Source of the DNA: Eledone cirrhosa
Taxonomy: Eukaryota
DNA length: 64,000 nucleotides
Assembly: GCA_964016885.1 (NCBI GenBank)
Contig: OZ024748.1
Location: forward strand, 19,530,001 to 19,594,000
Reading direction: 5' to 3'
Shown piece after piece: positions 2,713-58,259 of the stretch. The position numbers were made by a program, and so were the translations under genes. The notes beneath the pieces were generated by a model. It had not been told where the DNA came from and did not search any database. It saw nothing but the letters and a program-made list of their open reading frames with translations. Within the stretch, counting starts at the first letter, position 1. Each line of letters starts with the position of its first letter.

Positions 2713-3220
2713 CCAAAACAGCCGCAAGAAGGAACATGAACTGTGTATGTATATGTGTGTGTATGTGTGTGAGTGTGTAAGTATGTGCGTGCGTGTGTAT
2801 GTGAGAGTATGTGTGTGTGTGTGCGTTTGTATGCGTTTGTGTGCGTGTGCATTTGTATGTGTGGGAGTGCTTGCGTTTGTTTGTGTGTGGGAGATAGCGA
2901 GAGAGAGGGATAGTGTGTGCTTGGACGTCTGTCAATGTGTATGTCTATTGGAATATGTGTATTGTATGCGTGAGGAGTTTACATCAGACATATTGGTGCT
3001 TCGTTTCATCTTTTCAGCTCTACAGTTATATATACGTGTGTATGGAAAGCTTGGATTACTATCACACATATGCTGTGCACGGCTTTACATTACAAATTTC
3101 GTGCTAATCAACTTCTCTTGAAAATGGTTTTTGAAGTTTAAAGCAAAGTAGAATATATTCCAATTAAAATTAAAAATTAAGTAAATTCAGTAAAATAATA
3201 ATAATAATAATAATAATAAT

Positions 3221-4196: not shown

Positions 4197-4207
4197 ACAA
4201 CAACAAC

Positions 4208-4263
<56 letters not shown>

Positions 4264-4523
4264 TTTCTTTATTAACCACAAGGGTTTACATAAAGTAGAC
4301 ATTAAGGACAGTGCAGGACAATGCAGGACAGTACAAATGGGCATTTCTGCGTGTAAAAAAACAAAAACAGAGGATGTAACAAAAATAACAATGAAAATAA
4401 CAATGAAAAATTCCCCAATAGGGGGGAGACTTCGGAGGGACATTTGTGGAGAAAGCCCAGTAAAAAGCCACAATGACTCTGACCACCAAGGCAAGTGCCC
4501 TCTCCCAGTTTTCCACCTTTAGT

Positions 4524-7500
4524 TTACAGATATATACTCAGAGTCGGCCCATTCACTCGGGCCATTCTTGCTTCTCTCACCCATCTTTCAACAAAATGCT
4601 GGGAAGAGAGCACTTCCTTCTCTACTCTGATTTTCCTTTTCAAATGAAATTTGAAAAAGTCAATCAGAGCATCACCGAAGAGGTAAGTGCTCGTCTTCAG
4701 CCCTTTCAAACGTGTCCACCATACTATCTCTTTCGCCATGGCCACCAGACAGATAAAAACTGCCTGCCCTTCCCGGCTAAAGGAGGAGGGCGGGGCAATC
4801 CTCACGATAGACTCAGATGATAGCTGGATCCGTCCTAAACGCGACAGCAGGTGTTCGACATAAACCCACAAGTCAGCAATTTTCGGACACTGGACGAGTG
4901 CGTGCAGGACGGTTTCGTCGCCCTGCGCGCATCTCGGACATGCCCGGCTGACGGCACCTCCATGCCTGTAGAGTTTATCCCGAACTGGCAAGGCTCCTCG
5001 GTAGCACTGCCAGGCCAGAGATTTCTGGAAGTTGTCCATAGGCCCTGGCCCGAAAGTTCTTCCGAAGAGATTGGCTAGTTGATTTTCGTCGACGCCTAGA
5101 GTTTCCCCAAGTACGTCGTCGCTCTTCCCCTCCACTAATCCTCTATAGAACGCCGAGGTGGAGTTTCCACCGATCACATTGCCCGATTGGTCGAGGGCTG
5201 TGAGCGCCTGAAGACATTCCAGTCTCCAGGCGCTCCCTCTCGGTCTTCGCTTGACCCAGGACTGCAGCTCCGTCAAGGAAACGAGCTGGGGAAAAACGCG
5301 TCTAGCAAACGGCGACCACACCTGATCACCGTCGAGGAAGAGGTGGAGATGTCGTAGCCTGAGCGCGTGCCTGCGCATCATCAGCCACGGCATGCCCAGC
5401 CCTCCACGTAGCGGGTGTTGACAACAGATGGACCGCCTGACCATCGGAGCACGTCCCTTCCACAAAAAGCGAAAGAGCAAACGCTCCAGCGCAGTCAGGC
5501 GAGGCTTAGGACAAGGTACGACGGTTAGGCGGTAGCAGATGACAGACGCGATGTACGCGTTAGCCACCTCCGCTCGACCTTTCAGGGATAGCTTCCTCTC
5601 CGCCCATTTCTGGGTGAGAGAAGCCACCCTGCTCGTCACCTCGTCCCAGTTTTTGTCCGTCTGGAGGTCCGGACCGAACCAGACCCCTAGCAATTTAACC
5701 GGTCCGTCCGTCCAGCGCCCGACGACGCTGTTGGACGGCATGGACCTGCCTCTCCAGGTGCCGAGCTGCAGGCCCACTGACTTTTCCTGGTTGATCATTG
5801 CTCCTGTCACCGCTTCGTATTCTCTTAGTGTAGTGCCGATCGCCTCGATGTGTTTGGCGTTCGACACCACTACGGTGACATCGTCCGCATATGCTGACAC
5901 GGATCTTCCGCATCCTAGTTCGCGCGGGACTCCCCTCAACGTCTCCAGTTTGTGCAGTAATGGCTCGAGAGTCAATACGTACAAGAGGGACGAGAGGGGA
6001 CATCCTTGGCGGACCGAGCGCATGATGTTGAACGGTTCCGACAGGTGACCGTTCACTCTCACCACAGAGCAGATGTCGCTGTGCATGGCAGCGATCCAGC
6101 CTCTGAAGACGGGCCCAAAGCCAGCCGCCCTCAGGACTGCCGCTAGGTAACGATGGTCGACCCTATCGAAAGCTTTCGACTGATCTAAATTGATCAAGGA
6201 CCCACCCGTGCCAGGTTCCCTAGCTACCCTCTCTACGATGTATCGCATGAGGTGGAGGTTGTCGTGGATGGATCTGTCGGGAATGGCGCATGTCTGCGCC
6301 TCTCCCACCAGACCACCAACGACAAGCGCCAACCTCTTTGCTAGCACCTTGGCCAAAATCTTAAACTCTGTGTTTAGCAGAGTTATGGGCCGGAAATTGT
6401 CTATGTTATCCCCCTTGTTCGGATCCTTTCTCAGCAGTGCCACCGCTCCTCGGCTCACAGAACTGGGAATTCTCCCGTTCTGTTGCCAGTTGCAGTAGAC
6501 GTCCGCCAAGAGGCCTCCGAACAAGTCTGGCATCTGTACGTAAAGTTCATAGGGCAGACCATCCAAACCAGGCGATTTACCCCTTGTGCAGCCAGTCATT
6601 GCCTCCCGTACTTCAGCGGCTGTTATCGGCTTTTCGCAACACTTCGCCTCAGTGGCCGAGAGCCGCGGCAGTCCGTCGAGGTAGACACTAAAGTCCATCC
6701 CTCTACCCGGCCCCCCGCTGCCCCCGAACAGCTGAGCGAAGTGTCGCTGAAAAGCTTCACACATTTGCCCGGGATCGAGTAGCATGCGCCCGTCGTGGTC
6801 CACCAAAGACCGGATCGTGGCTTTGTTGCCACGACGCGCCTCCGCCACTCGGGCCCATTGAACGGCTTTCGTCCCCTCGTGTCTGAGAGCACGCACCCTA
6901 GCTCTGACAACGCAGCCTTCGTGCTTTGCATTGAAGAATTGGTCAAGGGCCAATTTCGCCGCAAGCACGTCGGTCGCAATGCCTTTGCTAAGCGCCTCGT
7001 CTAATTTTCTAACTAGTTCTCCCTCTGCTCTATTTTTCTCTATTGCTAAAGCCTTACTAAACCTAATCGATTCTATTCTAATCGCTCTTTTCAGAGCAAA
7101 CCACCACTTGTTGTTGACGATGGCCCCCGTCAACGCCCGCTTAACTAGTTCGCTAATCCGGTCTCTGTAGGCCTTGCGCGCTGGTAAGGACGCGTTTAGC
7201 TTCCAGTAGCCGGGTCCTCGTCTATGAAGCCTATCTAAGTCAAGCACACAGATCACGAATTTGTGGTCCGTGTAGCTGACTATCTTGAATTGTGGACAGC
7301 CTATGCTAGACCTATCTATTTCCCTACAAAATACTCTATCTAGATATGATCTGGATGACCCTATGCGGTTTGTCCAAGTCCACATTGGCACATTCGGGAA
7401 ATCCAATCGGTACCTGTCAGACAGTTCAAAACGCCTGAGCAGGTTGGTGAGGCTCTTGCACCCTCCACCCCTATCCGCTAATCCCACACAGTCCCAGCGT

Positions 7501-7943
7501 GCATCTAAGATCCCGTTCCAGTCGCCCACTAACACTAAAGAGCGGGACGTTCCAAGAAAGGTCTCCAGACGCCGGAAGAAATCAGGCCGCCCTGCTCCTG
7601 TCGGGGCATAGACGGCCACTAGCCTGAAAGCTTGCCCGTCTCCGCTGGTCACGTCCAGCACCACCAGCTTACCCTCTGGGTCCAGGAAGATGGCCCGTAT
7701 GGCGAGATCCAAACCTCTCCGAAAAAGCACAGCAACTCCTCCACCCGATCCAGGACGGCTGGGAGATGCGTACACATCGTAGCCGCCGAAGATCGGTGCG
7801 AAGGCCCGTGCTTCGGAGATTCTGGTCTCGCTGATGGCCACTACATCTATGTTTAGTGACCTGAGGTCGTTGAGCAGGTGACCCTGCTTCCATGACGACC
7901 CCAAGCCACGCGCATTTATGCTGCCTATTCTGAGTGAGGTCAT
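4524..7943 (-). CDS. Tx1 ORF2: AP endonuclease + reverse transcriptase + C-terminal zinc finger (1139 aa)
   Basis: APE motifs INARG, SETR, VYAP, GDWN, YLDR, TDH. RT motifs KSPGLDGL, FRPITLLN, DQSKAFD, QGCPLS, YADD. C-terminal CPRC..ETVLHALVQC. Confidence 0.95.
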   Translation of the reverse strand: MTSLRIGSINARGLGSSWKQGHLLNDLRSLNIDVVAISETRISEARAFAPIFGGYDVYASPSRPGSGGGVAVLFRRGLDLAIRAIFLDPEGKLVVLDVTSGDGQAFRLVAVYAPTGAGRPDFFRRLETFLGTSRSLVLVGDWNGILDARWDCVGLADRGGGCKSLTNLLRRFELSDRYRLDFPNVPMWTWTNRIGSSRSYLDRVFCREIDRSSIGCPQFKIVSYTDHKFVICVLDLDRLHRRGPGYWKLNASLPARKAYRDRISELVKRALTGAIVNNKWWFALKRAIRIESIRFSKALAIEKNRAEGELVRKLDEALSKGIATDVLAAKLALDQFFNAKHEGCVVRARVRALRHEGTKAVQWARVAEARRGNKATIRSLVDHDGRMLLDPGQMCEAFQRHFAQLFGGSGGPGRGMDFSVYLDGLPRLSATEAKCCEKPITAAEVREAMTGCTRGKSPGLDGLPYELYVQMPDLFGGLLADVYCNWQQNGRIPSSVSRGAVALLRKDPNKGDNIDNFRPITLLNTEFKILAKVLAKRLALVVGGLVGEAQTCAIPDRSIHDNLHLMRYIVERVAREPGTGGSLINLDQSKAFDRVDHRYLAAVLRAAGFGPVFRGWIAAMHSDICSVVRVNGHLSEPFNIMRSVRQGCPLSSLLYVLTLEPLLHKLETLRGVPRELGCGRSVSAYADDVTVVVSNAKHIEAIGTTLREYEAVTGAMINQEKSVGLQLGTWRGRSMPSNSVVGRWTDGPVKLLGVWFGPDLQTDKNWDEVTSRVASLTQKWAERKLSLKGRAEVANAYIASVICYRLTVVPCPKPRLTALERLLFRFLWKGRAPMVRRSICCQHPLRGGLGMPWLMMRRHALRLRHLHLFLDGDQVWSPFARRVFPQLVSLTELQSWVKRRPRGSAWRLECLQALTALDQSGNVIGGNSTSAFYRGLVEGKSDDVLGETLGVDENQLANLFGRTFGPGPMDNFQKSLAWQCYRGALPVRDKLYRHGGAVSRACPRCAQGDETVLHALVQCPKIADLWVYVEHLLSRLGRIQLSSESIVRIAPPSSFSREGQAVFICLVAMAKEIVWWTRLKGLKTSTYLFGDALIDFFKFHLKRKIRVEKEVLSSQHFVERWVREARMARVNGPTLSIYL

Positions 7944-7978
7944 GTTTAAAATAGAGTGGAAAAGATGGGAAAGACCAC

Positions 7979-10078
7979 TTACCGTACTTTTGGTAGAGGA
8001 GGGATGGTTTTTACATCCCTTTTCACTTGATCGTCTGGTGAAGGGACCGTTGAATCGTCCCTTCGGCTGGTCGTCGGCTCTTCTAAGAGAATGTCTGAGT
8101 ATACTCTTCGATTGATGGTTCCTCCTAGGTCCCTGAAATCACCAACTGCGTTGGGGAATTTCGTTTTAATGTTTGTGTATTGTTTCTGTGCTATTTTTAG
8201 CAGTCTTATGTTAGTTGGCGTTTTGATTGGTGCTGGTATTATGTAGTCCTGTTGTGAAATGTCTGTGTGTTCAATTATGTAAGTCATTAGTTTCTTGTTG
8301 TGTGTATTTATTGCCGTGCATTTGTTTTTCTGGGGGTGAAGTGTGGTTCTACTATTTTCTTGTCGTTGTTGCTGGGTGTGTGTGTTTTGTTGTTGTGTTT
8401 GCGATGTTGGTGCTTGTGGTGGTGGTGTTGAAGGTGTTGTTGGCGGTGGGGTTGTCGCCGGTGGTGATGGTGGCGCTAGTGTGGGTGGTGATGGTGTTGG
8501 TGTTGTTGCTGCTGTGGGTCTCTTTGCAGTAGACTTTACCCTTTTCTCATTTCTTTCCTCACTTTTCAAAGGCGACGATGCGCTGCTTCTGCGTTTGTGC
8601 CTTCTTACGACCTTTTGCCATCTCTCTCCCACCTCACACTCCATGTCTGATTCTGTGAGGTCGGGGAGGGGTACCAACTCCACTCTTTCACTTGTTGTTG
8701 TTGGTGATGTTTGCACTGGAGTCTCTGTTGCAGCTGCATTTGGTATTGCTGTTGTTGTTGTTAGTATTTCCACTGCTGCTGCTGTTTTTGATTTCCGTGG
8801 AGTGGGTATGGGTGCCACGGGCCTATCGTTCCTGGTTGCCGCTTGTCCTGTTGCTGGTAGCCGTGGAGCCGGATTCGGAAGGAGGGGGGTTTTCTCCTTT
8901 CTCAGGGTCTTCTCGTTGCAGAAGGCCCTGAGGTGAGTCTTCGATCCACAGCGAAAGCATTTCGGGCGTTTGCCCTCAACACTTATGGGCAGTTGAGTGC
9001 CGTTATCGAAGTCTATCACATCCGGGATAGCTTCGATGCACTCCTGGTTGGTTTGGATTAGCATCTCAATGGAGGAGCCGACCCAATCTTCTCTTACTTT
9101 TTTCTGTACTTGCAGTACAGTTGTTTTGTCCTCGATTCCGACGAGGACAGACGCGGCCAGCCAAGAAGGGGTCATTCCGGGGGGGACGTGGGTCAGTTTG
9201 ACCCTCACAATTTTTTGCCCACAGTAGGAGGGCACCAACACCATTTCCTCGCTCCTTAGGGTCACTACTGATTGGGCCTTTGCCTCCTGGGGTGTGGCAA
9301 AAAGTACGTCTACGGTGGCATATTTTTTGCCTCGGGTGATGTGCGTTTTCCGCTGCCACACAGACCCCAAGGCTTTTTGTATTTGGGCCTCTGTGGCTCT
9401 TTCCACCCTACGGGATTTTGTACTTACTGTACGGTACGTGACCGTACAGTGCTCTTGGGTTTCGAAAAAATTTTTCGCTGCCTTGCAGATTGCTCGGTGT
9501 CCGTTCTTTGTCACCATCTTCTTCGCTTCCTCTAATTCCTCATTTGTTATGAGGATTGTTTCCAAGTTTTTCGCAATACCTGCAAATGAGATTGGTTTTT
9601 CTCTGCTGTTGTTGTTGTCGTCAGAGCTGCTGGTACTTTTGTTGTTGCTGCAGGTACTACGACTACTGCCTCCGCCGCTGTTGCTGTGGTTGTTGTTGTT
9701 GGTGTTGCTGCTGCTAATGCTATTGTTGTTTATGCTGCTGGTGATGCTGTTGCGGCTGCTACTGTTGTTTTCATTGTCACTGTTGCTGTTGTTATTACGG
9801 CTGCTACTGCTATTATTCCTGACGTCAGACGAATGAACTGGGTTTTCGTATTTCCCGCACACCTGTTTCGTCGCTGTCGTCGTCGTCGTAGAGAAACCTT
9901 GCACGCTTTGCACGAGACTTTTCTTTTCTTTCGTCACTTGCGAAAGAGAAGGGAGGGAGAGAGACACATTTAAAGAAGGGAGGGAGAGAGACAATCTTCT
10001 CTCTGCTGTAGTGATGATTGAGGAAGAAGAAGACGGAATGAGTGGGAGTGACGTATGAAATTTCTTTTTGGTAGCCAT
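7979..10078 (-). CDS. Tx1 ORF1 (gag-like nucleic-acid-binding protein, 699 aa from first ATG)
   Basis: Zinc knuckle CFRCGSKTHLRAFC; Asn/Ser and Pro/Thr low-complexity tracts; ATG at 10078; lies directly upstream of ORF2. Confidence 0.9.
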   Translation of the reverse strand: MATKKKFHTSLPLIPSSSSSIITTAERRLSLSLPSLNVSLSLPSLSQVTKEKKSLVQSVQGFSTTTTTATKQVCGKYENPVHSSDVRNNSSSSRNNNSNSDNENNSSSRNSITSSINNNSISSSNTNNNNHSNSGGGSSRSTCSNNKSTSSSDDNNNSREKPISFAGIAKNLETILITNEELEEAKKMVTKNGHRAICKAAKNFFETQEHCTVTYRTVSTKSRRVERATEAQIQKALGSVWQRKTHITRGKKYATVDVLFATPQEAKAQSVVTLRSEEMVLVPSYCGQKIVRVKLTHVPPGMTPSWLAASVLVGIEDKTTVLQVQKKVREDWVGSSIEMLIQTNQECIEAIPDVIDFDNGTQLPISVEGKRPKCFRCGSKTHLRAFCNEKTLRKEKTPLLPNPAPRLPATGQAATRNDRPVAPIPTPRKSKTAAAVEILTTTTAIPNAAATETPVQTSPTTTSERVELVPLPDLTESDMECEVGERWQKVVRRHKRRSSASSPLKSEERNEKRVKSTAKRPTAATTPTPSPPTLAPPSPPATTPPPTTPSTPPPQAPTSQTQQQNTHTQQQRQENSRTTLHPQKNKCTAINTHNKKLMTYIIEHTDISQQDYIIPAPIKTPTNIRLLKIAQKQYTNIKTKFPNAVGDFRDLGGTINRRVYSDILLEEPTTSRRDDSTVPSPDDQVKRDVKTIPPLPKVR

Positions 10079-10292
10079 GTTTTTTTTGTTTAAAATGAAA
10101 TTTTGGGTACAAAACCCCAATAACTGGTTATTTAACCCCGAAGGGCCAAATAACGGACAGAAAGACCCCTCTCACGAGGAGGAGGGTGTCTTTATCAACA
10201 ATTTGGTTCAAGTTTTAAACAATTTACAATTGTTTTAACGGTTAAAAATTACTATACCTTACAGAGCCGAGCCTCCGTCAACCATGGCATTC

Positions 10293-10331
<39 letters not shown>

Positions 10332-11328
10332 GTAATTAACGTATCATTATCAAACAGGATATGTTGTGAATAGTCTTTATTAAATGTAAGATGGCGTCTC
10401 CAAAATATAGTCGCGTATACGTTGCCGATAAAATTACCGTTAGACGCCGTCATTTGCTGTAATAACAGTAATTATACAAGTAATTCTCAACGTTCATCTC
10501 TAAGACATGGTTTATTATATTAACATATGAACATTGTTTACATTAACGACTACAATAGAATGTAGCTTTCAGCTAACAGAGCCGTGGAGTGAAATGTGTG
10601 GGTGAGAGTAGATATCTATATACTACTAAAACTCTGTGATTGTGTGCTTGTCTGTAATATAATACAGCCAAAACGACGCATAATGGGAAAATACTTTGAA
10701 AGAAAAATGTCCCTGAAATGGGAATACAAATTGAATAAAACAAGTCTCGCGTAAATCGGAACACGGGATCCTTAGATACGGGGTTTTTCCGGGTACCCTC
10801 ATAAATAGCCAACATCTCTGTGATAACCAATCAGATCGTTATTGCACTTACCGTTGTGTTTCATTTCCGAAAAGCCTTAGTGTAGTCAAGTTAAAGACAG
10901 GCAGGAAGAGATCCCGCTTAGATAACAACTAGACCACCCGAGATCCAACGGGTCACGAGTGGTCTAGTATACTTTAAAATTACGATATATGTTGGTGCTT
11001 GGTAGTGTAGTTGGTTCTAAAGATGGGCGCTACCGCCCACCGGCGAGCATATTGTTTATTATATATAAATTAAGGATTTTATTTATTATATATTATTTTC
11101 AATTTCTGTGTAGGTAGGTCTCTCCGGAAATAGAGTTGGCACAGCAGGTATTATGTGGTCGTATTATGGTAATATGTATATATGAGTATATGCATGTTTA
11201 TTGTGCATGCATGTGTATATATGTATATATATATATATACACGCATATATATATATAGAGAGATATGTAAGTAAGTATGCACACGTACACACACTAACAC
11301 GCACACACACACACGCACATACACACAA

Positions 11329-42800: not shown

Positions 42801-43187
42801 TTTACTATGAGGAATTTATTAACAGACAGGGAGAGAAAAAATAGAGAGAGAGAGAGAGAGAGGATGAGAGAGAGAGAGGGAGAGAGAGATAGAGAGGAGG
42901 GGGGATAGATAGACAGATAGATATGTTTCTTTTATTTGCCACTAGGGCATCAAAAGTGGGACAAGTACAAAGGGGGGAGTTTACACAAAAAGGCGTCCTC
43001 AATAAGGAGGAGGCAATAACAAAATATAAAAATAAAATAAGATATAACAAAAAATAAAATTTTTAACAAAATCCTCAATAGAGAGGAGGCGCCTTGGGGG
43101 GTCGCACACACCCCCGAAAAAAGTGTGCAACCCTTCTCCTCAGGAGCACAGAGAAGGGGTGCTCCCTTGGTCTTTCATCTTCCTCAC

Positions 43188-46100
43188 CTATAGTCTGATG
43201 TAGAGTGAAGGCCCATTCACACGGGCCATTCTCGCCACTTTCACCCATCTTTCATAGAAACGGCTGGGGTGCAGCACCTCTCTCTCCATCCTGATCCTTC
43301 TTCCGAAATGATATCGGAAGAAACGGACCAGTTGTTGGCCAGAGAGAAAGGTGCCTGACCTCAGTCCTTTCAGACGCGTCCACCATACAACCTCTTTCGC
43401 CATGGCTATTACGCACAGAAACACCGCCTCTGCTTCATCTTTGAAGGGGGGAGGCGGCTTGATCATTACAATAGACTCGGTGGTCAACCGGATCGGTCCC
43501 ACCCTTGACAGCAATTGTTCGACATAGCCCCACAGATCGGCTACGCCCGAGCAGTGTACCAATGCGTGTGCAACGGTTTCCTCGTCGCACACGCATCTGG
43601 GACAGATCTTTTTGGCGGGGTCCCTACCCGGGCGCCCGTGTCTGTAGAGCCTTTCTCGAACGGGTAAAGCCCCTCGGTAGCACTGCCAGGCCAGGGACTT
43701 CTGGAAGTTGTCCATAGGTCCCGGGCTGAATGTCCTACCGAACAGGCTGGCCAGTTCGTCCTCCTCCATGTCTAGGGCTTCTCCGAGGGCGTCGTCGAAC
43801 CTGCTGCGTACCAGCCCTCTATAGAATGTTGCGGTGGAGTCTCCACTGATAACCGGATCCGCCTGCCAGAGGGCGGTGAGCGCCTGGGCACACTCAGTGT
43901 GCCAGGCGCCCAGTTTTCTCGGTCTTTGCTTGACCCAGGATTGCAGCTCGGTGAGTGAGACGAGTCTGGGAAAGGTTCGTCTCACAAACGAGGCCCACAC
44001 CGGTTGTCCGGTGAGGAATACGTAGAGGTGTCGTAGCCTTAATGCGTGTTTACGCATCATTAGCCACGGCATCCCCAGCCCTCCTTTCGAAGGGTGTTGA
44101 CAGCAGATGGATCTCCTCACCATAGGAGCCCGCCTCTTCCAAAGGAATTGGAAGAGCGCGCGCTCCATCTTGGTGAGGGTTTCCCTTGGGCAGGGCACTA
44201 CGGTCAGGCGGTAGTAGATGACGGACGCTATGTAGGTGTTCGCCACCTCCGCCCGACCTTTCAGGGATAGTTTGCAACTGGCCCACTTCTGGGTCAGTGC
44301 AAACACCCTGTTCGTAACCTCCGCCCAGTTTTTCTCCACCTGGAGGTCCGGTCCGAACCAGACCCCGAGCAACTTCACCGGGCCCTCCGTCCAGCGTCCG
44401 ACGACGCCATCGGAGGGCATCGGTCTGCCCCTCCACGTGCCGAGTTGCAAACCGATCGACTTGTCCCGGTTCAGCTTAGCCCCTGTGAACTTTTCGTACT
44501 CCTCCAGTAAGGTGCCGACCGCCTCGATTTCGGAGGCCGTCGACACCATTACTGTCACGTCATCGGCGTAGGCCGACACCGCTTTCCGCAATCCCGGTTC
44601 CAAAGGGATGCCCTGCAACAACTCCAACTTCCGCAGTAGTGGCTCGAGAGTCAACACATACAGAAGGGAGGAGAGAGGGCACCCTTGTCGGATGGACCGC
44701 GCGATTTTGAACGGCTCCGAGAGGTAGCCGTTCACCTTGACCCTAGAGCAGATGCGGCTGCTGTGCATAGCAGTGATCCAGCCTCTGAAAACGGGTCCGA
44801 AGCCTGCCGCCGCTAGCACCGCATCCAGGTAACCATGGTCGACCCTATCGAACGCCTTAGATTGATCCAAGTTGATCAGAGCCCCACCAAAGCCGGGTTC
44901 GTTCCCAACCCTCTCTATGATGTATCGCACGAGGTGGAGGTTGTCATGGATGGACCTGGACGGGATAGCGCATGTCTGCGCATCTCCCACCAGGTTGCCC
45001 ACGACAAGCGCCAACCTCTTTGCTAGCACCTTGGCCAAAATCTGTAACTCTGTATTTAACAGTGTTATGGGCCTGAAGTTACTTATTTCGTCCCCCTTGT
45101 TCTCGTCCTTCCTCACTAGCGTGACTACGCCCTTGGTCACAGTACAGGGAATTCTCCCGTTCTGTTGCCAGTTGCAGTAGACCGCCTCGAGGAGATCGGG
45201 GAACAAGTCCGGCATAGCTAGATATAATTCGTAAGGAAGACCATCGAGACCCGGGGATTTGCGTTTGCCGCATTGGCTCAGCACGTCCTCTATCTCAGCG
45301 GCCGAAATCGGCTCCTCGCAGGACTTCGCCTCCCTGTCCGAGAGGCGCGGCAGGCCGTCGAGGTATGGACCGAAGTCCACGTTCCCAACCGGCTCCCCGC
45401 CCCTCCCGAACAGTCGGGCAAAGTGCCTTTGAAAGGCCTCACACATCTGCTTAGGCTCAAGAATCGCCCGTCCATCTAGGTCTCGCAAAGACCGGATGGT
45501 GGATTTAGTTCCACTGTTGGCCTCTGTCACGCGGGCCCAGCTAACAGCTTTGGTCCCCTCGTTCCCTAGAGCACGTATTTTACTTCGGACAACGCAGCCT
45601 TCGTGCTTCGCGTCGAAAAACTGGCTCAAAGCCGTTCTCGACGCTAGCACTCTGGCCACGTCGCCGCTTCTAATTGCCTCTTCTACTCTATCTATTAGCT
45701 CCCTTTCCTTCCTATTCCTATCCGCAGCTAGAACCTTACTAAATTCTATCGAGACTACTCTAATCTCTCTCTTTAGAGATACCCACCACCTGCTGTTGAC
45801 GATCGCTCCAGTCAACCGTTCCTTAACTAACGTACTAATCCGATTCCTGTAGGCTCTACTTGCCGGCAAGGACAAGTTGAGCTTCCAGTAACCGGGGCCC
45901 TGTCTATGAGTTCTGTCAAGGTTGACCATGCAGGTCACTAATTTGTGGTCTGAATAGCCAACCATGCGCATTTTTGGACAACTTAAAAAGTCCTTATCCT
46001 TAATTCTAACTAAGAACCTATCTAGGTACGACCTAGATGATCCGCTACGATTTGCCCAAGTCCAGGTTGGCGCAGTCGGAAAATCTAGTCGATATCTATC

Positions 46101-46625
46101 GGCCAGGTCAAATCGACCGATTAACCCTTTGAGGCTATTACACCCCTCTCTATCGGGGCAGGCCCCTACGTAGTCCCAGCGTGCATCTAGGATACCATTC
46201 CAGTCCCCCACTAATAGCAAGGAGCGGGACGTCCCTAGAAAAGTCTCCAGACGATGGAAGAAGTCCGGCCGCATTGACCCGAAAGGGCCGTAGGCGGCTA
46301 CCAACCTAAACGCTCCGCCTTTACCACTGCCAAGGTCCAGAACCACTAGTCGACCCTCCGGGTCCAAATGTACCATCTGTGTTGCGAGACCCAGATGTTT
46401 TTGCAGCAGAACGACAACTCCACCCCCACCTCCGGGCTGACAGAGAGATGCGTGCATCTCAAAGTCATCAAAGGTGGGGGCCAGCTGTCGCACGTTGCTG
46501 ATCCGGGCCTCGCAAATAACCATCACATCTATACGTTGTGATCTGAGGTCATTTAGAAGCATTGCTTGCTTCCAAGTTGAGCCCAGGCCACGCGCATTTA
46601 AACAGCCTACTCTTAGCATAGCCAT
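43188..46625 (-). CDS. Tx1 family B ORF2: APE + RT + zinc finger (1145 aa from ATG)
   Basis: LNARG, CEAR, GDWN, YLDR, SDH, DQSKAFD, QGCPLS, YADD, CPRC..ETVAHALVHC; colinear with family A ORF2. Confidence 0.93.
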   Translation of the reverse strand: MAMLRVGCLNARGLGSTWKQAMLLNDLRSQRIDVMVICEARISNVRQLAPTFDDFEMHASLCQPGGGGGVVVLLQKHLGLATQMVHLDPEGRLVVLDLGSGKGGAFRLVAAYGPFGSMRPDFFHRLETFLGTSRSLLLVGDWNGILDARWDYVGACPDREGCNSLKGLIGRFDLADRYRLDFPTAPTWTWANRSGSSRSYLDRFLVRIKDKDFLSCPKMRMVGYSDHKLVTCMVNLDRTHRQGPGYWKLNLSLPASRAYRNRISTLVKERLTGAIVNSRWWVSLKREIRVVSIEFSKVLAADRNRKERELIDRVEEAIRSGDVARVLASRTALSQFFDAKHEGCVVRSKIRALGNEGTKAVSWARVTEANSGTKSTIRSLRDLDGRAILEPKQMCEAFQRHFARLFGRGGEPVGNVDFGPYLDGLPRLSDREAKSCEEPISAAEIEDVLSQCGKRKSPGLDGLPYELYLAMPDLFPDLLEAVYCNWQQNGRIPCTVTKGVVTLVRKDENKGDEISNFRPITLLNTELQILAKVLAKRLALVVGNLVGDAQTCAIPSRSIHDNLHLVRYIIERVGNEPGFGGALINLDQSKAFDRVDHGYLDAVLAAAGFGPVFRGWITAMHSSRICSRVKVNGYLSEPFKIARSIRQGCPLSSLLYVLTLEPLLRKLELLQGIPLEPGLRKAVSAYADDVTVMVSTASEIEAVGTLLEEYEKFTGAKLNRDKSIGLQLGTWRGRPMPSDGVVGRWTEGPVKLLGVWFGPDLQVEKNWAEVTNRVFALTQKWASCKLSLKGRAEVANTYIASVIYYRLTVVPCPRETLTKMERALFQFLWKRRAPMVRRSICCQHPSKGGLGMPWLMMRKHALRLRHLYVFLTGQPVWASFVRRTFPRLVSLTELQSWVKQRPRKLGAWHTECAQALTALWQADPVISGDSTATFYRGLVRSRFDDALGEALDMEEDELASLFGRTFSPGPMDNFQKSLAWQCYRGALPVRERLYRHGRPGRDPAKKICPRCVCDEETVAHALVHCSGVADLWGYVEQLLSRVGPIRLTTESIVMIKPPPPFKDEAEAVFLCVIAMAKEVVWWTRLKGLRSGTFLSGQQLVRFFRYHFGRRIRMEREVLHPSRFYERWVKVARMARVNGPSLYIRL

Positions 46626-46649
46626 GTTGGTGGTGAAGAGAAAAGGCAC

Positions 46650-48444
46650 TTACCTCTCTGCGTCCCGGGTATCGGGCTGCACAATTTCCATTAGGGTGGG
46701 GGATGGGTTGTTGGGTGGGGTGGTGGTTTGTGGAAGTGTGGGGGCATCAGTGTGTTGTGTGGTTGGGGAGCTTGGAGTTGTGTGGGTGTTTGGGGAGGGG
46801 GTGGGATAGTTTTTTAGGAGGACGCGGTTAATGGGCCCGACGCAGGGGGGACCCACGTCCTCTTTAAAATTGTTTTTTAAAGTTTTATAGGTGTCCTGTG
46901 GGGTCTTAATCATTTTGAGGTGGGGGAAATCCCCTGCCTGGGTGAAGTTAGGCCCTTGTGTTTTTATTAGATTGTTGTTGTACACAATGTTTAACAGTTT
47001 TTTGTTTCTTGTATTTATGTATGTGTATGCATGTTTTTGTTTTTGTGTGGTGTTTTTTGTTTGCTGTTGTTGTGAGCTCTTTTGTGTTGGTGTCAGTGTT
47101 ATGTTTTGGGGAGGGTTTTTTTTCATTTGTGTGTCTGAGGTGTGTTTTCTTTTTTTTCTTTTGATTGTGTGGAAGTGCTCCTCCTCGTCTGACGACGAAC
47201 TAGGGTCATCTTCCGCGTTGGAGGGGAGGGGTATATTTTCGGGTTGTGTTTGCGGTACGGGTGTTTTGGAAATTGTTTTTGTTTTTTGAGTGGAGGGGAT
47301 GGGTTGGACATTGTTTGTTTTGGTTTGAGCTGTGGTGGTTGTTTTTGTAGTGGTAGTTGTGGTGATTGTGTTGGTTGTGCAGTTGTTGGTGGTGTAGGCA
47401 GGATTGGGGTTTTCTTATTAAGTTGGGGACAGACAGCCCTCAGGTGACCTCTGGTTCCGCAGAGGTAACACGAGGGCCGTCTACCCTCAACGGTAATGTT
47501 GATGAAGGTTAGATCATCCAGTATGACGCGTTCAGGGATCTGGGCGATCCTTTCGGGCCTCATTTGAACTACAAGTTCGAGGCTCGTTCCACTGAACGCG
47601 TCACCCGATGCCTTTCCCATGGACACCAGCATGTCATCCTCCAGGTCCAGAAAACCTGTCAAAACCCACCATATGTCCATAATCGGCAGGATGGTGTGGA
47701 TTTTTATTTTTTGTGTTCTTCTACCCATGTACGTAGGGTAGAAGGTGTATGCGGTGGATGTGATTGGTTTGATGGACAGTTTCACTGCTGTGTCCCTGTC
47801 CTTCATGAGAATGGATAGACTCCCGTAGAGTCTATCCTTCTGAATGAAGGTGATGTCCTTCATGACGTCTTTTAAAACCAGCTCTATCTCGCTCTGTGAT
47901 GGTTGAGCTGGTTTTTTACTTTTGTTCGAGATTGTCCTAAACATGACCGTGTTTAGGAGTCTCTGGCTTTTTAGTTCCGGGGGGGGGAATGGATTGTGAA
48001 TGAACCATTTTCCCCGTACACTATATATTTTTTCGCATCCGCCAGTAGCTCCTTCGCTTTTGTTATATCTACTGGCAGATAGTCGAGGGTTTTCCTTGTC
48101 GTCTCGGCGAAGGAGAAATTTTGTTTGTTTGTGTTGTTGTTGTCGTTGGTGGTGTTGTTGTTATCATTGTTGTTGTTGTCACCGTTATTGGTCTTGTTGT
48201 TGTTGTTATTGTTATTGTTATTGGTGTTGTTTTCGTCCGTCGCATTGTTGTTGTTGTTGCTGTTGCTGCTGGTTCTTTGGGTTGTTGCCATGGCAACGTC
48301 AAGTTGTCGGTTAACAGGTGGAGAGAATTCTTCCTCTGGCTGACCTTTCTTCTTGACCTCTGCTACTGTGACAGTGGCAGGGGGAAGCTGTAAGTTCATC
48401 TTCCCCTTTCCTCCTTCGAATTTTGGTGAAGAAGCTTCGGCCAT
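46650..48444 (-). pseudogene. Tx1 family B ORF1 split by two frameshifts
   Basis: Pieces 47971-48444, 47123-47944 and 46650-47126 match family A ORF1 in order (SFAE/SFAG, VEGRRPSCYLCGTRGHLRAVC, INTRNKKL, GPINR). Shifts at or near a G9 run (47979-47987) and a T-rich run (about 47276-47287). Confidence 0.85.
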
Positions 48445-48740
48445 TTAAAAAAATATTGACTTTTCAACAAGAAAAAACTTTTTTTTTTTGTTTAACTATT
48501 TCACCTAAAGGCGTAGAATATTTTGAGAGACTGACCAGATCAAAGTTTGACCTGGCAGTCCCTCTACAAAATGGTACAAAAATTAAAGTTATCAGACAAG
48601 AATTTCTATAGAAATTTAAACAGAACTTACTCAGCAAGTTATACGCGTGTGTCCATCCCAGAGATAGATAGTTAGACAGATAGATAGATAGATAGATAGA
48701 TAAATAAATAAATATATATAGATATATATATATACAGTAT

Positions 48741-49574: not shown

Positions 49575-49646
<72 letters not shown>

Positions 49647-49862
49647 GAATGCCATGGTTGACGGAGGCTCGGCTCTGTAAGGTATAGTAATTTTTAACCG
49701 TTAAAACAATTGTAAATTGTTTAAAACTTGAACCAAATTGTTGATAAAGACACCCTCCTCCTCGTGAGAGGGGTCTTTCTGTCCGTTATTTGGCCCTTCG
49801 GGGTTAAATAACCAGTTATTGGGGTTTTGTACCCAAAATTTCATTTTAAACAAAAAAACAAC

Positions 49863-51959
49863 ATGGCTACGAAAAAGAAATTTCATACGTCACTCCCACT
49901 CATTCCGTCTTCTTCTTCCTCAATCATCACTACAGCAGAGAGAAGATTGTCTCTCTCCCTCCCTTCTTTAAATGTGTCTCTCTCCCTCCCTTCTCTTTCG
50001 CAAGTGACGAAAGAAAAGAAAAGTCTCGTGCAAAGCGTGCAAGGTTTCTCCACGACGACGACGACAGCGACGAAACAGGTGTGCGGGAAATACGAAAACC
50101 CAGTTCATTCGTCTGACGTCAGGAATAATAGCAGTAGCAGCCGTAATAACAACAGCAACAGTGACAATGAAAACAACAGTAGCAGCCGCAACAGCATCAC
50201 CAGCAGCATAAACAACAACAGCATTAGCAGCAGCAACACCAACAACAACCACAGCAACAGCGGCGGAGGCAGTAGTCGTAGTACCTGCAGCAACAACAAA
50301 AGTACCAGCAGCTCTGACGACAACAACAACAGCAGAGAAAAACCAATCTCATTTGCAGGTATTGCGAAAAACTTGGAAACAATCCTCATAACAAATGAGG
50401 AATTAGAGGAAGCGAAGAAGATGGTGACAAAGAACGGACACCGAGCAATCTGCAAGGCAGCGAAACATTTTTTCGAAACCCAAGAGCACTGTACGGTCAC
50501 GTACCGTACAGTAAGTACAAAATCCCGTAGGGTGGAAAGAGCCACAGAGGCCCAAATACAAAAAGCCTTGGGGTCTGTGTGGCAGAGGAAAACGCACATC
50601 ACCCGAGGCAAAAAATACGCCACCGTAGACGTACTTTTTGCCACACCCCAGGAGGCAAAGGCCCAATCAGTAGTGACCCTAAGGAGCGAGGAAATGGTGT
50701 TGGTGCCCTCCTACTGCGGGCAAAAAATTGTGAGGGTCAGACTGACCCACGTCCCCCCCGGAATGACCCCTTCTTGGCTGGCCGCGTCTGTCCTCGTCGG
50801 AATCGAGGACAAAACAACTGTACTGCAAGTACAGAAAAAAGTAAGAGAAGATTGGGTCGGCTCCTCCATTGAGATGCTAATCCAAACCAACCAGGAGTGC
50901 ATCGAAGCTATCCCGGATGTGATAGACTTCGATAACGGCACTCAACTGCCCATAAGTGTTGAGGGCAAACGCCCGAAATGCTTTCGCTGTGGATCGAAGA
51001 CTCACCTCAGGGCCTTCTGCAACGAGAAGACCCTGAGAAAGGAGAAAACCCCCCTCCTTCCGAATCCGGCTCCACGGCTACCAGCAACAGGACAAGCGGC
51101 AACCAGGAACGATAGGTCCGTGGCACCCATACCCACTCCACGGAAATCAAAGACAGCAGCAGCAGTGGAAATATTAACAACAACAACAGCAATACCAAAT
51201 GCAGCTGCAACAGAGACTCCAGTGCAAACATCACAAACAACAACAAGTGAAAGAGTGGAGCTGGTACCCCTCCCCGACCTTACAGAATCAGACATGGAGT
51301 GTGAGGTGGGAGAGGGATGGCAAAAGGTCGCAAGAAGGCACAAACGCAGAAGCAGCGCATCGTCGCCTTTGAAAAGGGAGGAAAGAAATGAGAAAAGGGT
51401 AAAGTCTACTGCAAAGAGACCCACAGCAGCAACACCACCAACACCATCACCACCCACACCAGCACCACCATCACCACCGGCGACAACCCCACCGCCAACA
51501 ACACCTTCAACACCACCACCACAAGCACCAACATCGCAAACACAACAACAAAACACACACACCCAGCAACAACGACAAGAAAATAGCAGAACCACACCCC
51601 ACCCCCAGAAAAACAAATGCACGGCAATAAACACACACAACAAGAAACTAATGACTTACATAATTGAACACACAGACATTTCACAACAGGACTACATAAT
51701 ACCAGCACCAATCAAAACGCCAACTAACATAAGACTGCTAAAAATAGCACAGAAACAATACACAAACATTAAAACGAAATTCCCCAACGCAGTTGGTGAT
51801 TTCAGGGACCTAGGAGGAACCATCAATCGAAGAGTATATTCAGACATTCTCTTAGAAGAGCCGACGACCAGCCGAAGGGACGATTCAACGGTCCCTTCAC
51901 CAGACGATCAAGTGAAAAGGGATGTAAAAACCATCCCTCCTCTACCAAAAGTACGGTAA
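49863..51959 (+). CDS. Tx1 ORF1 (698 aa from first ATG)
   Basis: CFRCGSKTHLRAFC zinc knuckle; near-identical to 7979-10078. Confidence 0.9.
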   Translation: MATKKKFHTSLPLIPSSSSSIITTAERRLSLSLPSLNVSLSLPSLSQVTKEKKSLVQSVQGFSTTTTTATKQVCGKYENPVHSSDVRNNSSSSRNNNSNSDNENNSSSRNSITSSINNNSISSSNTNNNHSNSGGGSSRSTCSNNKSTSSSDDNNNSREKPISFAGIAKNLETILITNEELEEAKKMVTKNGHRAICKAAKHFFETQEHCTVTYRTVSTKSRRVERATEAQIQKALGSVWQRKTHITRGKKYATVDVLFATPQEAKAQSVVTLRSEEMVLVPSYCGQKIVRVRLTHVPPGMTPSWLAASVLVGIEDKTTVLQVQKKVREDWVGSSIEMLIQTNQECIEAIPDVIDFDNGTQLPISVEGKRPKCFRCGSKTHLRAFCNEKTLRKEKTPLLPNPAPRLPATGQAATRNDRSVAPIPTPRKSKTAAAVEILTTTTAIPNAAATETPVQTSQTTTSERVELVPLPDLTESDMECEVGEGWQKVARRHKRRSSASSPLKREERNEKRVKSTAKRPTAATPPTPSPPTPAPPSPPATTPPPTTPSTPPPQAPTSQTQQQNTHTQQQRQENSRTTPHPQKNKCTAINTHNKKLMTYIIEHTDISQQDYIIPAPIKTPTNIRLLKIAQKQYTNIKTKFPNAVGDFRDLGGTINRRVYSDILLEEPTTSRRDDSTVPSPDDQVKRDVKTIPPLPKVR

Positions 51960-51994
51960 GTGGTCTTTCCCATCTTTTCCACTCTATTTTAAAC

Positions 51995-54900
51995 ATGACC
52001 TCACTCAGAATAGGCAGCATAAATGCGCGTGGCTTGGGGTCGTCATGGAAGCAGGGTCACCTGCTCAACGACCTCAGGTCACTAAACATAGATGTAGTGG
52101 CCATCAGCGAGACCAGAATCTCCGAAGCACGGGCCTTCGCATCAATCTTCGGCGGCTACGATGTGTACGCATCTCCCAGCCGTCCTGGATCGGGTGGAGG
52201 AGTTGCTGTGCTTTTTCGGAGAGGTTTAGATCTCGCCATACGGGCCATCTTCCTGGACCCAGAGGGTAAGCTGGTGGTGCTGGACGTGACCAGCGGAGAC
52301 GGGCAAGCTTTCAGGCTAGTGGCCGTCTATGCCCCGACAGGAGCAGGGCGGCCTGATTTCTTCCGGCGTCTGGAGACCTTTCTTGGAACGTCCCGCTCTT
52401 TAGTGTTAGTGGGCGACTGGAACGGGATCTTAGATGCACGCTGGGACTGTGTGGGATTAGCGGATAGGGGTGGAGGGTGCAAGAGCCTCACCAACCTGCT
52501 CAGGCGTTTTGAACTGTCTGACAGGTACCGATTGGATTTCCCGAATGTGCCAATGTGGACTTGGACAAACCGCATAGGGTCATCCAGATCATATCTAGAT
52601 AGAGTATTTTGTAGGGAAATAGATAGGTCTAGCATAGGCTGTCCACAATTCAAGATAGTCAGCTACACGGACCACAAATTCGTGACCTGTGTGCTTGACT
52701 TAGATAGGCTTCATAGACGAGGACCCGGCTACTGGAAGCTAAACGCGTCCTTACCAGCGCGCAAGGCCTACAGAGACCGGATTAGCGAACTAGTTAAGCG
52801 GGCGTTGACGGGGACCATCGTCAACAACAAGTGGTGGTTTGCTCTGAAAAGAGCGATTAGAATAGAATCGATTAGGTTTAGTAAGGCTTTAGCAATAGAG
52901 AAAAATAGAGCAGAGGGAGAACTAGTTAGAAAATTAGACGAGGCGCTTAGCAAAGGCATTGCGACCGACGTGCTTGCGGCGAAATTGGCCCTTGACCAAT
53001 TCTTCAATGCAAAGCACGAAGGCTGCGTTGTCAGAGCTAGGGTGCGTGCTCTCAGACACGAGGGGACGAAAGCCGTTCAATGGGCCCGAGTGGCGGAGGC
53101 GCGTCGTGGCAACAAAGCCACGATCCGGTCTTTGGTGGACCACGACGGGCGCATGCTACTCGATCCCGGGCAAATGTGTGAAGCTTTTCAGCGACACTTC
53201 GCTCAGCTGTTCGGGGGCAGCGGGGGGCCGGGTAGAGGGATGGACTTTAGTGTCTACCTCGACGGACTGCCGCGGCTCTCGGCCACTGAGGCGAGGTGTT
53301 GCGAAAAGCCGATAACAGCCGCTGAAGTACGGGAGGCAATGACTGGCTGCACAAGGGGTAAATCGCCTGGTTTGGATGGTCTGCCCTATGAACTTTACGT
53401 ACAGATGCCAGACTTGTTCGGAGGCCTCTTGGCGGACGTCTACTGCAACTGGCAACAGAACGGGAGAATTCCCAGTTCTGTGAGCCGAGGAGCGGTGGCA
53501 CTGCTGAGAAAGGATCCGAACAAGGGGGATAACATAGAAAATTTCCGGCCCATAACTCTGCTAAACACAGAGTTTAAGATTTTGGCCAAGGTGCTAGCAA
53601 AGAGGTTGGCGCTTGTCGTTGGTGGTCTGGTGGGAGAGGCGCAGACATGCGCCATTCCCGACAGATCCATCCACGACAACCTCCACCTCATGCGATACAT
53701 CGTAGAGAGGGTAGCTAGGGAACCTGGCACGGGTGGGTCCTTGATCAATTTAGATCAGTCGAAAGCTTTCGATAGGGTCGACCATCGTTACCTAGCGGCA
53801 GTCCTGAGGGCGGCTGGCTTTGGGCCCGTCTTCAGAGGCTGGATCGCTGCCATGCACAGCGACATCTGCTCTGTGGTGAGAGTGAACGGTCACCTGTCGG
53901 AACCGTTCAACATCATGCGCTCGGTCCGCCAAGGATGTCCCCTCTCGTCCCTCTTGTACGTATTGACTCTCGAGCCATTACTGCACAAACTGGAGACGTT
54001 GAGGGGGGTCCCGCGCGAACTAGGATGCGGAAGATCCGTGTCAGCATATGCGGACGATGTCACCGTAGTGGTGTCGAACGCCAAACACATCGAGGCGATC
54101 GGCACTACACTAAGAGAATACGAAGCGGTGACAGGAGCAATGATCAACCAGGAAAAGTCAGTGGGCCTGCAGCTCGGCACCTGGAGAGGCAGGTCCATGC
54201 CGTCCAACAGCGTCGTCGGGCGCTGGACGGACGGACCGGTTAAATTGCTAGGGGTCTGGTTCGGTCCGGACCTCCAGACGGACAAAAACTGGGACGAGGT
54301 GACGAGCAGGGTGGCTTCTCTCACCCAGAAATGGGCGGAGAGGAAGCTATCCCTGAAAGGTCGAGCGGAGGTGGCTAACGCGTACATCGCGTCTGTCATC
54401 TGCTACCGCCTAACCGTCGTACCTTGTCCTAAGCCTCGCCTGACTGCGCTGGAGCGTTTGCTCTTTCGCTTTTTGTGGAAGGGACGTGCTCCGATGGTCA
54501 GGCGGTCCATCTGTTGTCAACACCCGCTACGTGGAGGGCTGGGCATGCCGTGGCTGATGATGCGCAGGCACGCGCTCAGGCTACGACATCTCCACCTCTT
54601 CCTCGACGGTGATCAGGTGTGGTCGCCGTTTGCTAGACGCGTTTTTCCCCAGCTCGTTTCCTTGACGGAGCTGCAGTCCTGGGTCAAGCGAAGACCGAGA
54701 GGGAGCGCCTGGAGACTGGAATGTCTTCAGGCGCTCACAGCCCTCGACCAATCGGGCAATGTGACCGGTGGAAACTCCACCTCGGCGTTCTATAGAGGAT
54801 TAGTGGAGGGGAAGAGCGACGACGTACTTGGGGAAACTCTAGGCGTCGACGAAAATCAACTAGCCAATCTCTTCGGAAGAACTTTCGGGCCAGGGCCTAT

Positions 54901-55414
54901 GGACAACTTCCAGAAATCTCTGGCCTGGCAGTGCTACCGAGGAGCCTTGCCAGTTCGGGATAAACTCTACAGGCATGGAGGTGCCGTCAGCCGGGCATGT
55001 CCGAGATGCGCGCAGGGCGACGAAACCGTCCTGCACGCACTCGTCCAGTGTCCGAAAATTGCTGACTTGTGGGTTTATGTCGAACACCTGCTGTCGCGTT
55101 TAGGACGGATCCAGCTATCATCTGAGTCTATCGTGAGGATTGCCCCGCCCTCCTCCTTTAGCCGGGAAGGGCAGGCAGTTTTTATCTGTCTGGTGGCCAT
55201 GGCGAAAGAGATAGTATGGTGGACACGTTTGAAAGGGCTGAAGACGAGCACTTACCTCTTCGGTGATGCTCTGATTGACTTTTTCAAATTTCATTTGAAA
55301 AGGAAAATCAGAGTAGAGAAGGAAGTGCTCTCTTCCCAGCATTTTGTTGAAAGATGGGTGAGAGAAGCAAGAATGGCCCGAGTGAATGGGCCGACTCTGA
55401 GTATATATCTGTAA
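51995..55414 (+). CDS. Tx1 ORF2: APE + RT + zinc finger (1139 aa)
   Basis: Same motifs as 4524-7943; about six amino-acid differences by eye. Confidence 0.95.
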   Translation: MTSLRIGSINARGLGSSWKQGHLLNDLRSLNIDVVAISETRISEARAFASIFGGYDVYASPSRPGSGGGVAVLFRRGLDLAIRAIFLDPEGKLVVLDVTSGDGQAFRLVAVYAPTGAGRPDFFRRLETFLGTSRSLVLVGDWNGILDARWDCVGLADRGGGCKSLTNLLRRFELSDRYRLDFPNVPMWTWTNRIGSSRSYLDRVFCREIDRSSIGCPQFKIVSYTDHKFVTCVLDLDRLHRRGPGYWKLNASLPARKAYRDRISELVKRALTGTIVNNKWWFALKRAIRIESIRFSKALAIEKNRAEGELVRKLDEALSKGIATDVLAAKLALDQFFNAKHEGCVVRARVRALRHEGTKAVQWARVAEARRGNKATIRSLVDHDGRMLLDPGQMCEAFQRHFAQLFGGSGGPGRGMDFSVYLDGLPRLSATEARCCEKPITAAEVREAMTGCTRGKSPGLDGLPYELYVQMPDLFGGLLADVYCNWQQNGRIPSSVSRGAVALLRKDPNKGDNIENFRPITLLNTEFKILAKVLAKRLALVVGGLVGEAQTCAIPDRSIHDNLHLMRYIVERVAREPGTGGSLINLDQSKAFDRVDHRYLAAVLRAAGFGPVFRGWIAAMHSDICSVVRVNGHLSEPFNIMRSVRQGCPLSSLLYVLTLEPLLHKLETLRGVPRELGCGRSVSAYADDVTVVVSNAKHIEAIGTTLREYEAVTGAMINQEKSVGLQLGTWRGRSMPSNSVVGRWTDGPVKLLGVWFGPDLQTDKNWDEVTSRVASLTQKWAERKLSLKGRAEVANAYIASVICYRLTVVPCPKPRLTALERLLFRFLWKGRAPMVRRSICCQHPLRGGLGMPWLMMRRHALRLRHLHLFLDGDQVWSPFARRVFPQLVSLTELQSWVKRRPRGSAWRLECLQALTALDQSGNVTGGNSTSAFYRGLVEGKSDDVLGETLGVDENQLANLFGRTFGPGPMDNFQKSLAWQCYRGALPVRDKLYRHGGAVSRACPRCAQGDETVLHALVQCPKIADLWVYVEHLLSRLGRIQLSSESIVRIAPPSSFSREGQAVFICLVAMAKEIVWWTRLKGLKTSTYLFGDALIDFFKFHLKRKIRVEKEVLSSQHFVERWVREARMARVNGPTLSIYL

Positions 55415-55672
55415 ACTAAAGGTGGAAAACTGGGAGAGGGCACTTGCCTTGGTGGTCAGGGTCATTGTGGCTTTTTACTGGGCTTTCTCCACAAATGTCC
55501 CTCCGAAGTCTCCCCCCTATTGGGGAATTTTTCATTGTTATTTTCATTGTTATTTTTGTTACATCCTCTGTTTTTGTTTTTACACGCAGAAATGCCCATT
55601 TGTACCGTCCTGCATTGTCCTGCACTGTCCTTAATGTCTACTTTATGTAAACCCTTGTGGTTAATAAAGAAA

Positions 55673-55740
<68 letters not shown>

Positions 55741-56806: not shown

Positions 56807-56842
56807 TATTATTATTATTATTATTATTATTGTTATTGTTAT

Positions 56843-58023: not shown

Positions 58024-58025
<2 letters not shown>
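56843..58025 (-). mobile_element. 5'-truncated R4/Dong-like RLE retrotransposon, family 1
   Basis: RLYLRRSEGGRGL, CRIC..HIVSEC, RPDLVVVD..IVDVACPFD (stop at 56918). Same family as 3221-4196 but diverged. (TAA)n on both sides. Confidence 0.92.
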
Positions 58026-58100
<75 letters not shown>

Positions 58101-58259
58101 GAGCGGTGGATTGGCAGTATCGGTAGGTCGGACGCCATGCTTTGCAGCATAGAGTTACGCCCCTTTACGGCATGGGTTCAAATCCCGCCGAGGTTATCTT
58201 TGCCTTTCAAGCTTACGGGGTCGATAAAATAAAGTACCAGTAATGTACTGGGATAATTG
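58101..58259 (+). mobile_element. tRNA-derived SINE, 3'-truncated, directly after (ATT)n
   Basis: A box, B box GGGTTCAAATCCC and shared core. Confidence 0.85.

Follow-up and report, generated by a model that had tools for sequence, protein, structure and literature searches.

Long interspersed nuclear elements (LINEs) of the Tx1 clade, such as Kibi and Koshi, have two open reading frames (ORFs), of which ORF1 carries a CCHC motif and ORF2 combines an APE endonuclease, a reverse transcriptase and a zf-RVT domain; microsatellites flank the elements, and L1-Tx1 families have been reported in octopus (PMC4494074, PMC13282606). LINEs sharing all of these features occur in a 64,000-nucleotide (nt) stretch of the 3.0-Gb Eledone cirrhosa genome (assembly GCA_964016885.1, contig OZ024748.1, positions 19,530,001 to 19,594,000), referred to below as the window. 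They comprise two full-length copies of one family (A), 99.2% identical over 6143 nt, and a full-length copy of a second family (B) with 68% identity to family A in ORF2. Judged by sequence, they fit the Tx1 clade as described in PMC4494074, the outgroups in our tree being all unnamed. The full-length copies that we viewed are flanked by (ATT)n or (TAGA)n microsatellites (no formal count). The CCHC motif in ORF1 of family A was seen in the sequence itself; the protein has no Pfam match, and its look-alikes in a protein atlas are CCHC/RNA-binding clusters (0.90-0.93), which provide a lead only. Here we analyze the junction between ORF1 and ORF2, where a 5' splice-site (donor) motif spans the ORF1 stop codon.

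In family A the stop codon TAA (51957-51959) directly follows the donor G at 51956. The first AG after the motif, with none from position +7 onward before it, lies at 52007-52008, so that a join at this AG would remove 53 nt and place ORF1 in frame with ORF2. Copy 1 has the same junction, and in family B the first-AG join removes 42 nt and is likewise in frame (Table 1). The preliminary description of this DNA had read these features, all of which we confirmed, as a candidate micro-intron that would fuse the two ORFs. The part of that proposal concerning the donor proved to hold far beyond families A and B, whereas the in-frame fusion is not conserved; a U1-binding signal, which had been listed as an alternative, fits the data better.

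To put the junction into an evolutionary context, we gathered related loci from the same genome by their ORF2 sequence and without regard to the donor. The queries were families A and B, two outgroup proteins, PF03372, family F, and ORF2-start patterns for families E and G. Three loci representing another LINE type (L103, L106 and L115) were set aside. In total, 230 loci were examined, a few of which duplicate one another, and the ORF2 start was located in 214 of them but not in the other 16. The loci sort into 13 subfamilies (the letters are our own labels) in three endonuclease clades, with ORF2 identities of about 55-92%. An exact donor, defined as G followed by GT(A/G)A(G/T)T with the cut between the two Gs, was found 15-65 nt upstream of the ORF2 start in 184 of the 214 loci; the alternative G/T at +5 was admitted after family G had been seen. 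The remaining 30 loci have point changes, deletions or 5' truncations. Since an exact donor is expected in only ~1% of 50-nt windows at this composition, its presence cannot be attributed to chance.

The core of the motif is kept in 13/13 subfamilies. Positions -1, +1, +2, +4 and +6 are invariant, -2 is A in 11/13, +3 is either A or G, and +5 is G in 12/13. In a donor-anchored profile with one natural copy per subfamily, mean pairwise identity is 0.91 for the donor compared with 0.34 for positions -30 to -4 and 0.43 for +8 to +27. The conserved footprint extends exactly from -2 to +6 and falls off at +7. Two further features are common to all 13 subfamilies: a pyrimidine tract (pyrimidine share 0.79-0.92) behind the donor, and an ATG preceded by A at both -3 and -2 (AA(C/T)-ATG) four codons before a conserved Arg. 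The ORF1 stop is located at most 8 nt from the cut in 12/13.

The reading frame in which ORF1 meets the donor is variable. The donor phase is 2 in A, A', B, F, G, H' and H'', 1 in C, C'1, D, E and H, and 0 in C'0. Counts of upstream stop codons for phases 0/1/2 are 174/366/8 in A, 192/228/30 in B, 119/18/50 in D, 143/125/72 in F, 129/65/92 in E and 45/77/38 in G. For C, C' and G the stop counts are noisy, and their phase calls rest on homology and open frames. Long open ORF1 frames were found in H (643 codons; the ORF2 of this copy has 1118), D (463), C (299) and C'0 (238), and peptide homology lends further support to the phase calls. As the phase flips among 0, 1 and 2, neither the protein nor the stop codon can explain why the donor is conserved. 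The comparison therefore clearly points to selection on the motif at the nucleotide level, whatever the frame of ORF1. Descent without function, which we consider very improbable, could draw on the common ancestry of all subfamilies and on the occurrence of other strong donors, some of them fixed by codons; it does not account for eight fixed positions among flanks that have decayed to near randomness, nor for frame flips in all three clades.

The exchange of A and G at +3 is typical of U1 sites, and the footprint would be that of U1 pairing. We located the host U1 gene and found that in 11 of the 12 subfamilies tested the junction is the best 11-mer partner of the U1 5' end within 480 nt on either side. 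Elsewhere, sites with at least 8/9 donor matches number only 0-3 per element. The reading that we favor, at a probability of roughly 0.45, is that the motif serves as a docking site for the U1 small nuclear ribonucleoprotein, partly masked by a hairpin and acting mostly without splicing on the two-ORF RNA. U1 would bind the motif at the end of ORF1 during transcription and stop the polymerase from terminating or polyadenylating early while it crosses ORF2 (3.4 kb); ORF1 would be protected in the same way by a weaker donor close to the 5' end. Actual splicing would be held low by pairing between the donor and the tract and by the short distance to the AG, and translation of ORF2 would begin at its own AUG through termination-reinitiation, a mechanism that has been proposed for other LINEs. 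There are precedents: a 5' splice site acts against Restrictor independently of splicing (PMC12211998), U1 at the foamy virus donor can suppress polyadenylation without splicing (PMC3694450), the HIV-1 donor is masked by a hairpin (PMC4974535), and SART1 and L1 use RNA elements in termination-reinitiation (PMC5972666).

The last of these precedents might also suggest that the motif and its hairpin are a translation signal for reinitiation at ORF2 and only look like a donor. The tie to the ORF1 stop and the invariant AUG context agree with this idea, as do the U- or pyrimidine-rich spacers that precede ORF2 in distant relatives devoid of the donor. We regard it as unlikely, because conservation confined to -2 to +6, the A/G swap at +3 and the drop at +7 correspond to a U1 footprint, while the motif ignores both frame and stop position and the stem register varies between clades.

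The distant relatives come from metagenome contigs (22-35% identity). A first metagenome scan returned no relatives. The ORF1 end was located in 24 of 29 loci examined, and 0 of these 24 have a donor over the stop with at least 8/9 matches. In 3/37 loci a strong donor is found no more than 150 nt from the ORF2 start, and U-rich spacers occur frequently. Hence the donor characterizes this clade, and the tract does not. In one distant element (L271, 27% identity) a strong donor precedes the ORF2 start by 61 nt and leads into a U-rich tract, an arrangement much like that of the octopus junction. Distant L1/Tx1-type elements also show a GGGGAC-like motif ~30-60 nt past the ORF1 stop and then a long U-rich spacer (L290, L292-L295, L305, L306, L308, L310, L313 and L325); this motif is a possible reinitiation element.

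We next consider the acceptor side. The first AG lies 28-55 nt from the donor, with spans as short as 28-39 nt, after the AUG in seven subfamilies and before it in six. Joining at this AG is in frame in 7/13 subfamilies and out of frame in 6/13 (C, C'1, D, E, G and H), and every endonuclease clade mixes members of both kinds. A share of 7/13 does not statistically exceed one third (p 0.10, the subfamilies being not independent). Alignment of the inter-ORF spacers, which had been suggested as a check, thus upheld the donor in all subfamilies and did not uphold the acceptor phase. The in-frame joins in the window are also weaker than they appear, as the AG falls within a conserved ORF2 motif, in its Arg codon. 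AGs in other phases follow 2-5 nt beyond the first AG; in family B the first AG is AAG, and the first YAG (Y, pyrimidine) is out of frame. Branch-like motifs were seen in C and G only. Contigs from four runs of unrecorded kind cover 49650-55650; two of them (X4 record 11 and X6 record 28) cross the junction unspliced, and the proposed join is absent among the 15 joints listed (289 further joints are unlisted), observations that are uninformative on splicing.

For a retained micro-intron that on removal would join the two ORFs in one frame, Ogre long terminal repeat (LTR) elements offer a precedent (PMC6317226). Apart from the seven in-frame subfamilies, this reading gains from family F, where the Arg codon lacks AG and a TAG two codons upstream is in phase again at about 53 nt, as though the AG had been relocated with its phase kept. 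An in-frame TAG 5 nt beyond the first AG in C and D and the CAG of family A, a good acceptor at 53 nt, point the same way. We nevertheless find the fusion improbable. It would be out of frame in six subfamilies, and in family E none of the 25 loci has an in-phase AG within 90 nt. H and H' differ in phase through a one-base indel, yet the H copy has intact ORFs. The Ogre arrangement, in which ORF1 and ORF2 stay in frame across the family and the second ORF depends on the fusion, is therefore not what we observed: frame is kept in 7/13 (and is impossible in E), and AAC/AAT-ATG is kept in 13/13. The latter bears out a caveat of the preliminary description, namely that ORF2 has its own AACATG; this AUG and its context are invariant even though they would be intronic if the ORFs were fused. 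Protein searches, all of them weak, detected no fused or exonised ORF1; the closest named protein that they returned is from an octopus.

Splicing before retrotransposition could leave a genomic record. In human L1 about 2% of integrants are spliced and reverse transcription shows cis-preference (PMC5860796). A fusion RNA encodes the reverse transcriptase, so that its copying is expected under cis-preference, which is established for human L1 and not for this clade. Copies precisely lacking the spacer, whose existence would have strengthened the fusion, were absent among the >6000 copies of families A, B and H. For family A, 0 spliced copies stand against 4675 unspliced ones (upper 95% bound 0.06%). 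The count for family B is 0 against 782, with a single match being a 5'-truncated copy, which indicates that the probe does detect foreign upstream DNA. In family H it is 0 against 810, and three matches proved to be point variants. We also probed for alternative joins involving the donor, acceptor or leader donor of family A; these probes, each covering part of the possible joins, returned 5, 6, 5 and 10 matches, none of them GT-AG. These are indels, point variants, one microhomology deletion and one foreign insertion. The deletion (L352; 435 nt, ending CG) and the insertion, situated in an A-type leader (L356), were both rejected as spliced joins; the start of the latter may resemble a DNA transposon end.

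These counts bear less on a donor that is truly spliced, at a low or regulated level, into RNA that is not copied and holds no conserved fusion. Such splicing would remove the AUG, shift the frame or join a far acceptor; the far acceptor could be in the 3' untranslated region (UTR), the next tandem copy or a host exon, giving an ORF1-only RNA, while an acceptor before the AUG could take the leader donor and yield an ORF2-only RNA. All families have a perfect donor, a tract and an AG, ORF1 always ends just past the cut, and in family G the branch-like motif is 22 nt upstream of the AG. The first-AG join removes the AUG in 7/13 and retains it in 6/13. Copia-type elements, which make a spliced gag RNA, offer a parallel. 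RNA without ORF2 would not be copied in cis, and human L1 does produce ORF2-only spliced RNA (PMC2896524). On the other side, no common acceptor emerged: D, E, F and H do not have the acceptor-like site of the A 3' UTR, and a common 3' UTR acceptor was accordingly rejected. Within the partial coverage of the probes, we found no genomic copy in which the donor or leader donor of family A, or the acceptor of A, B or H, is joined to another exon. The 5' ends of copies do not pile up at the junction (4/214 in the first 100 nt), which also led us to reject an internal promoter for an ORF2-only RNA. On balance, we judge splicing of this kind rather unlikely.

Several observations concern the same regions. 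The A 3' UTR site (55547-55589, plus strand) is a pyrimidine tract with CAG, seen also in G, and all families have a short, hairpin-like C-rich/G-rich motif in this UTR. Donor-like sites followed by T-rich sequence lie 21-55 nt from the 5' end of the element in most families (49677/49682 on the plus strand and 48630 on the minus strand of the window; L243, L253, L255 and L256). They score only 5-8 of 9, and the leaders that carry them are otherwise unrelated. An in-frame AUG supplied by the leader is possible in A only and absent in B, C and F, and was dismissed. A second strong donor is located in the endonuclease (codons E-G-K-L) at ORF2 +271 (window 52263-52271, plus strand) in A', C', D, E and G (L241, L246, L248, L250 and L255). 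The Tx1-like piece of an octopus gene model (P0002) stops exactly at this donor, which hints at exonisation into a host gene and lends some support to uncopied splicing.

Predicted RNA structure bears on how accessible the donor would be. In 16/16 representatives the predicted fold pairs the cut site with the pyrimidine tract, and the hairpin beats a tract-shuffle control in C, D (twice), E and F (p 0.003-0.037, uncorrected). C, C' and F share a stem from -5 to +2 with a 6-nt loop; its Watson-Crick share is 0.86, 0.78 and 0.86, respectively, compared with at most 0.62 for the next register. Two pairs of this stem are G-C in C/C' and A-U in F, that is, compensatory between clades. D and E have a different stem (-1 to +8; paired 0.98 and 0.92). 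The predicted hairpin is weak in A, G and H, the fold z being -2.0 for the A region of the window and +0.8 for B. It is possible, though doubtful, that these LINEs have evolved a retrovirus-like, hairpin-attenuated donor at the ORF1 stop, with U1 switching between ORF1 and ORF2 output through antitermination or regulated splicing and the retrotransposing RNA remaining unspliced.

Several points weigh against U1 docking largely without splicing. Were the donor masked by a hairpin, the U1 binding on which this reading depends would itself be weakened, and the hairpin beats the shuffle control in only 5/16 representatives, the window's own A and B not among them. AATAAA/ATTAAA signals are few within ORF2 (0-3 per element) and commoner in ORF1, upstream of the donor; because poly(A) signals are so scarce in ORF2, the target of U1 protection is not obvious. 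The proximity of the ORF1 stop to the cut is left unexplained. G, H and C' carry a textbook tract-AG just upstream of the AUG that looks like a real acceptor. Finally, the absence of spliced copies is silent if the clade lacks cis-preference or splices only in the soma.

Table 1. LINE copies and junction features in the window.
Feature	Position	Strand	Details
Family A LINE copy 2, full-length	49645..55675	+	(ATT)n microsatellite flanks
Family A LINE copy 1	4196..10336	-	Donor G 7982, ORF2 ATG 7943, first AG ends 7930
Family B LINE	42922..48661	-	Leader donor 48630; ORF1 frameshifted in window copy
Family B junction	46612..46656	-	Donor G 46653, ORF2 ATG 46625, first AG ends 46612
Family A leader, weak donor-like site(s)	49674..49687	+	GT at 49677 and 49682
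Family A ORF1, 698 aa, CCHC knuckle	49863..51959	+	Arg-stop end falls inside donor
5' splice-site motif spanning ORF1 stop	51953..51961	+	Cut between 51955 and 51956
Pyrimidine tract, predicted pairing with part of donor	51964..51989	+	Weak in family A, strong in C, C', D, E, F
ORF2 start codon with AAC context	51992..51997	+	Four codons upstream of Arg
First AG past donor (proposed acceptor)	52006..52008	+	Place and phase match not conserved
Family A ORF2, 1139 aa	51995..55414	+	APE endonuclease PF03372, reverse transcriptase PF00078, zf-RVT PF13966

ORF1 of the family B copy in the window is broken across three frames. Other mobile-element fragments adjoin the LINEs at 3220-4119 (plus strand), 55886-56869, 56918-58177 and 11462-12064 (all minus strand); by eye, they are C-terminal pieces of reverse transcriptases and a mariner-like transposase. 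Long tandem arrays at 20900-32700 (unit of about 20 nt) and 37700-40200 (G/T-skewed) yield stop-free frames. Elsewhere in the genome, elements form head-to-tail arrays ~6 kb apart, often of mixed families (G000 C1 near 55.43-55.45 Mb; L244, L245, L250, L252 and L256). One family E copy (L250) has an A-type 5' leader, suggesting swapping of leaders or ORF1.

The junction touches two open questions: how ORF1 and ORF2 output is balanced in two-ORF LINEs, and how intronless retrotransposon RNAs pass the termination surveillance of the host. The element, seven bases long and clearly under selection, occurs in 13 subfamilies and in thousands of copies, among which there are natural variants of phase and hairpin, and it lends itself to a direct test. 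With thousands of strong donors dispersed in the genome, splicing into host genes may also occur.

Compared with described Tx1-clade LINEs, the octopus elements differ in the conserved donor over the ORF1 stop. Our search of the open-access literature found no paper on such a donor in a LINE, although Repbase entries or supplements may mention one, and none of the distant relatives with a located ORF1 end has it. Human L1 also has splice sites within its RNA (SpIREs, SpORF2), and an ORF2-only spliced RNA exists; its donors are in the 5' UTR and it has left spliced copies, of which we found none in the families probed here. Ogre elements, likewise retroelements with two ORFs, have a donor where the first ORF ends and use unspliced RNA as the template. 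Their spacer averages 274 bp and its splicing has been shown experimentally (PMC6317226), whereas the octopus LINEs have short spans, do not keep the frame and provide ORF2 with its own conserved AUG. The HIV-1 splice-donor hairpin and the foamy virus major splice donor resemble the LINE junction in having a strong, locally masked donor in genomic RNA (PMC4974535, PMC3694450), the masking being only predicted here. Both viral donors belong to the 5' leader, and splicing there is extensive; the LINE donor is internal, at the ORF1 stop, and any use of it is putative.

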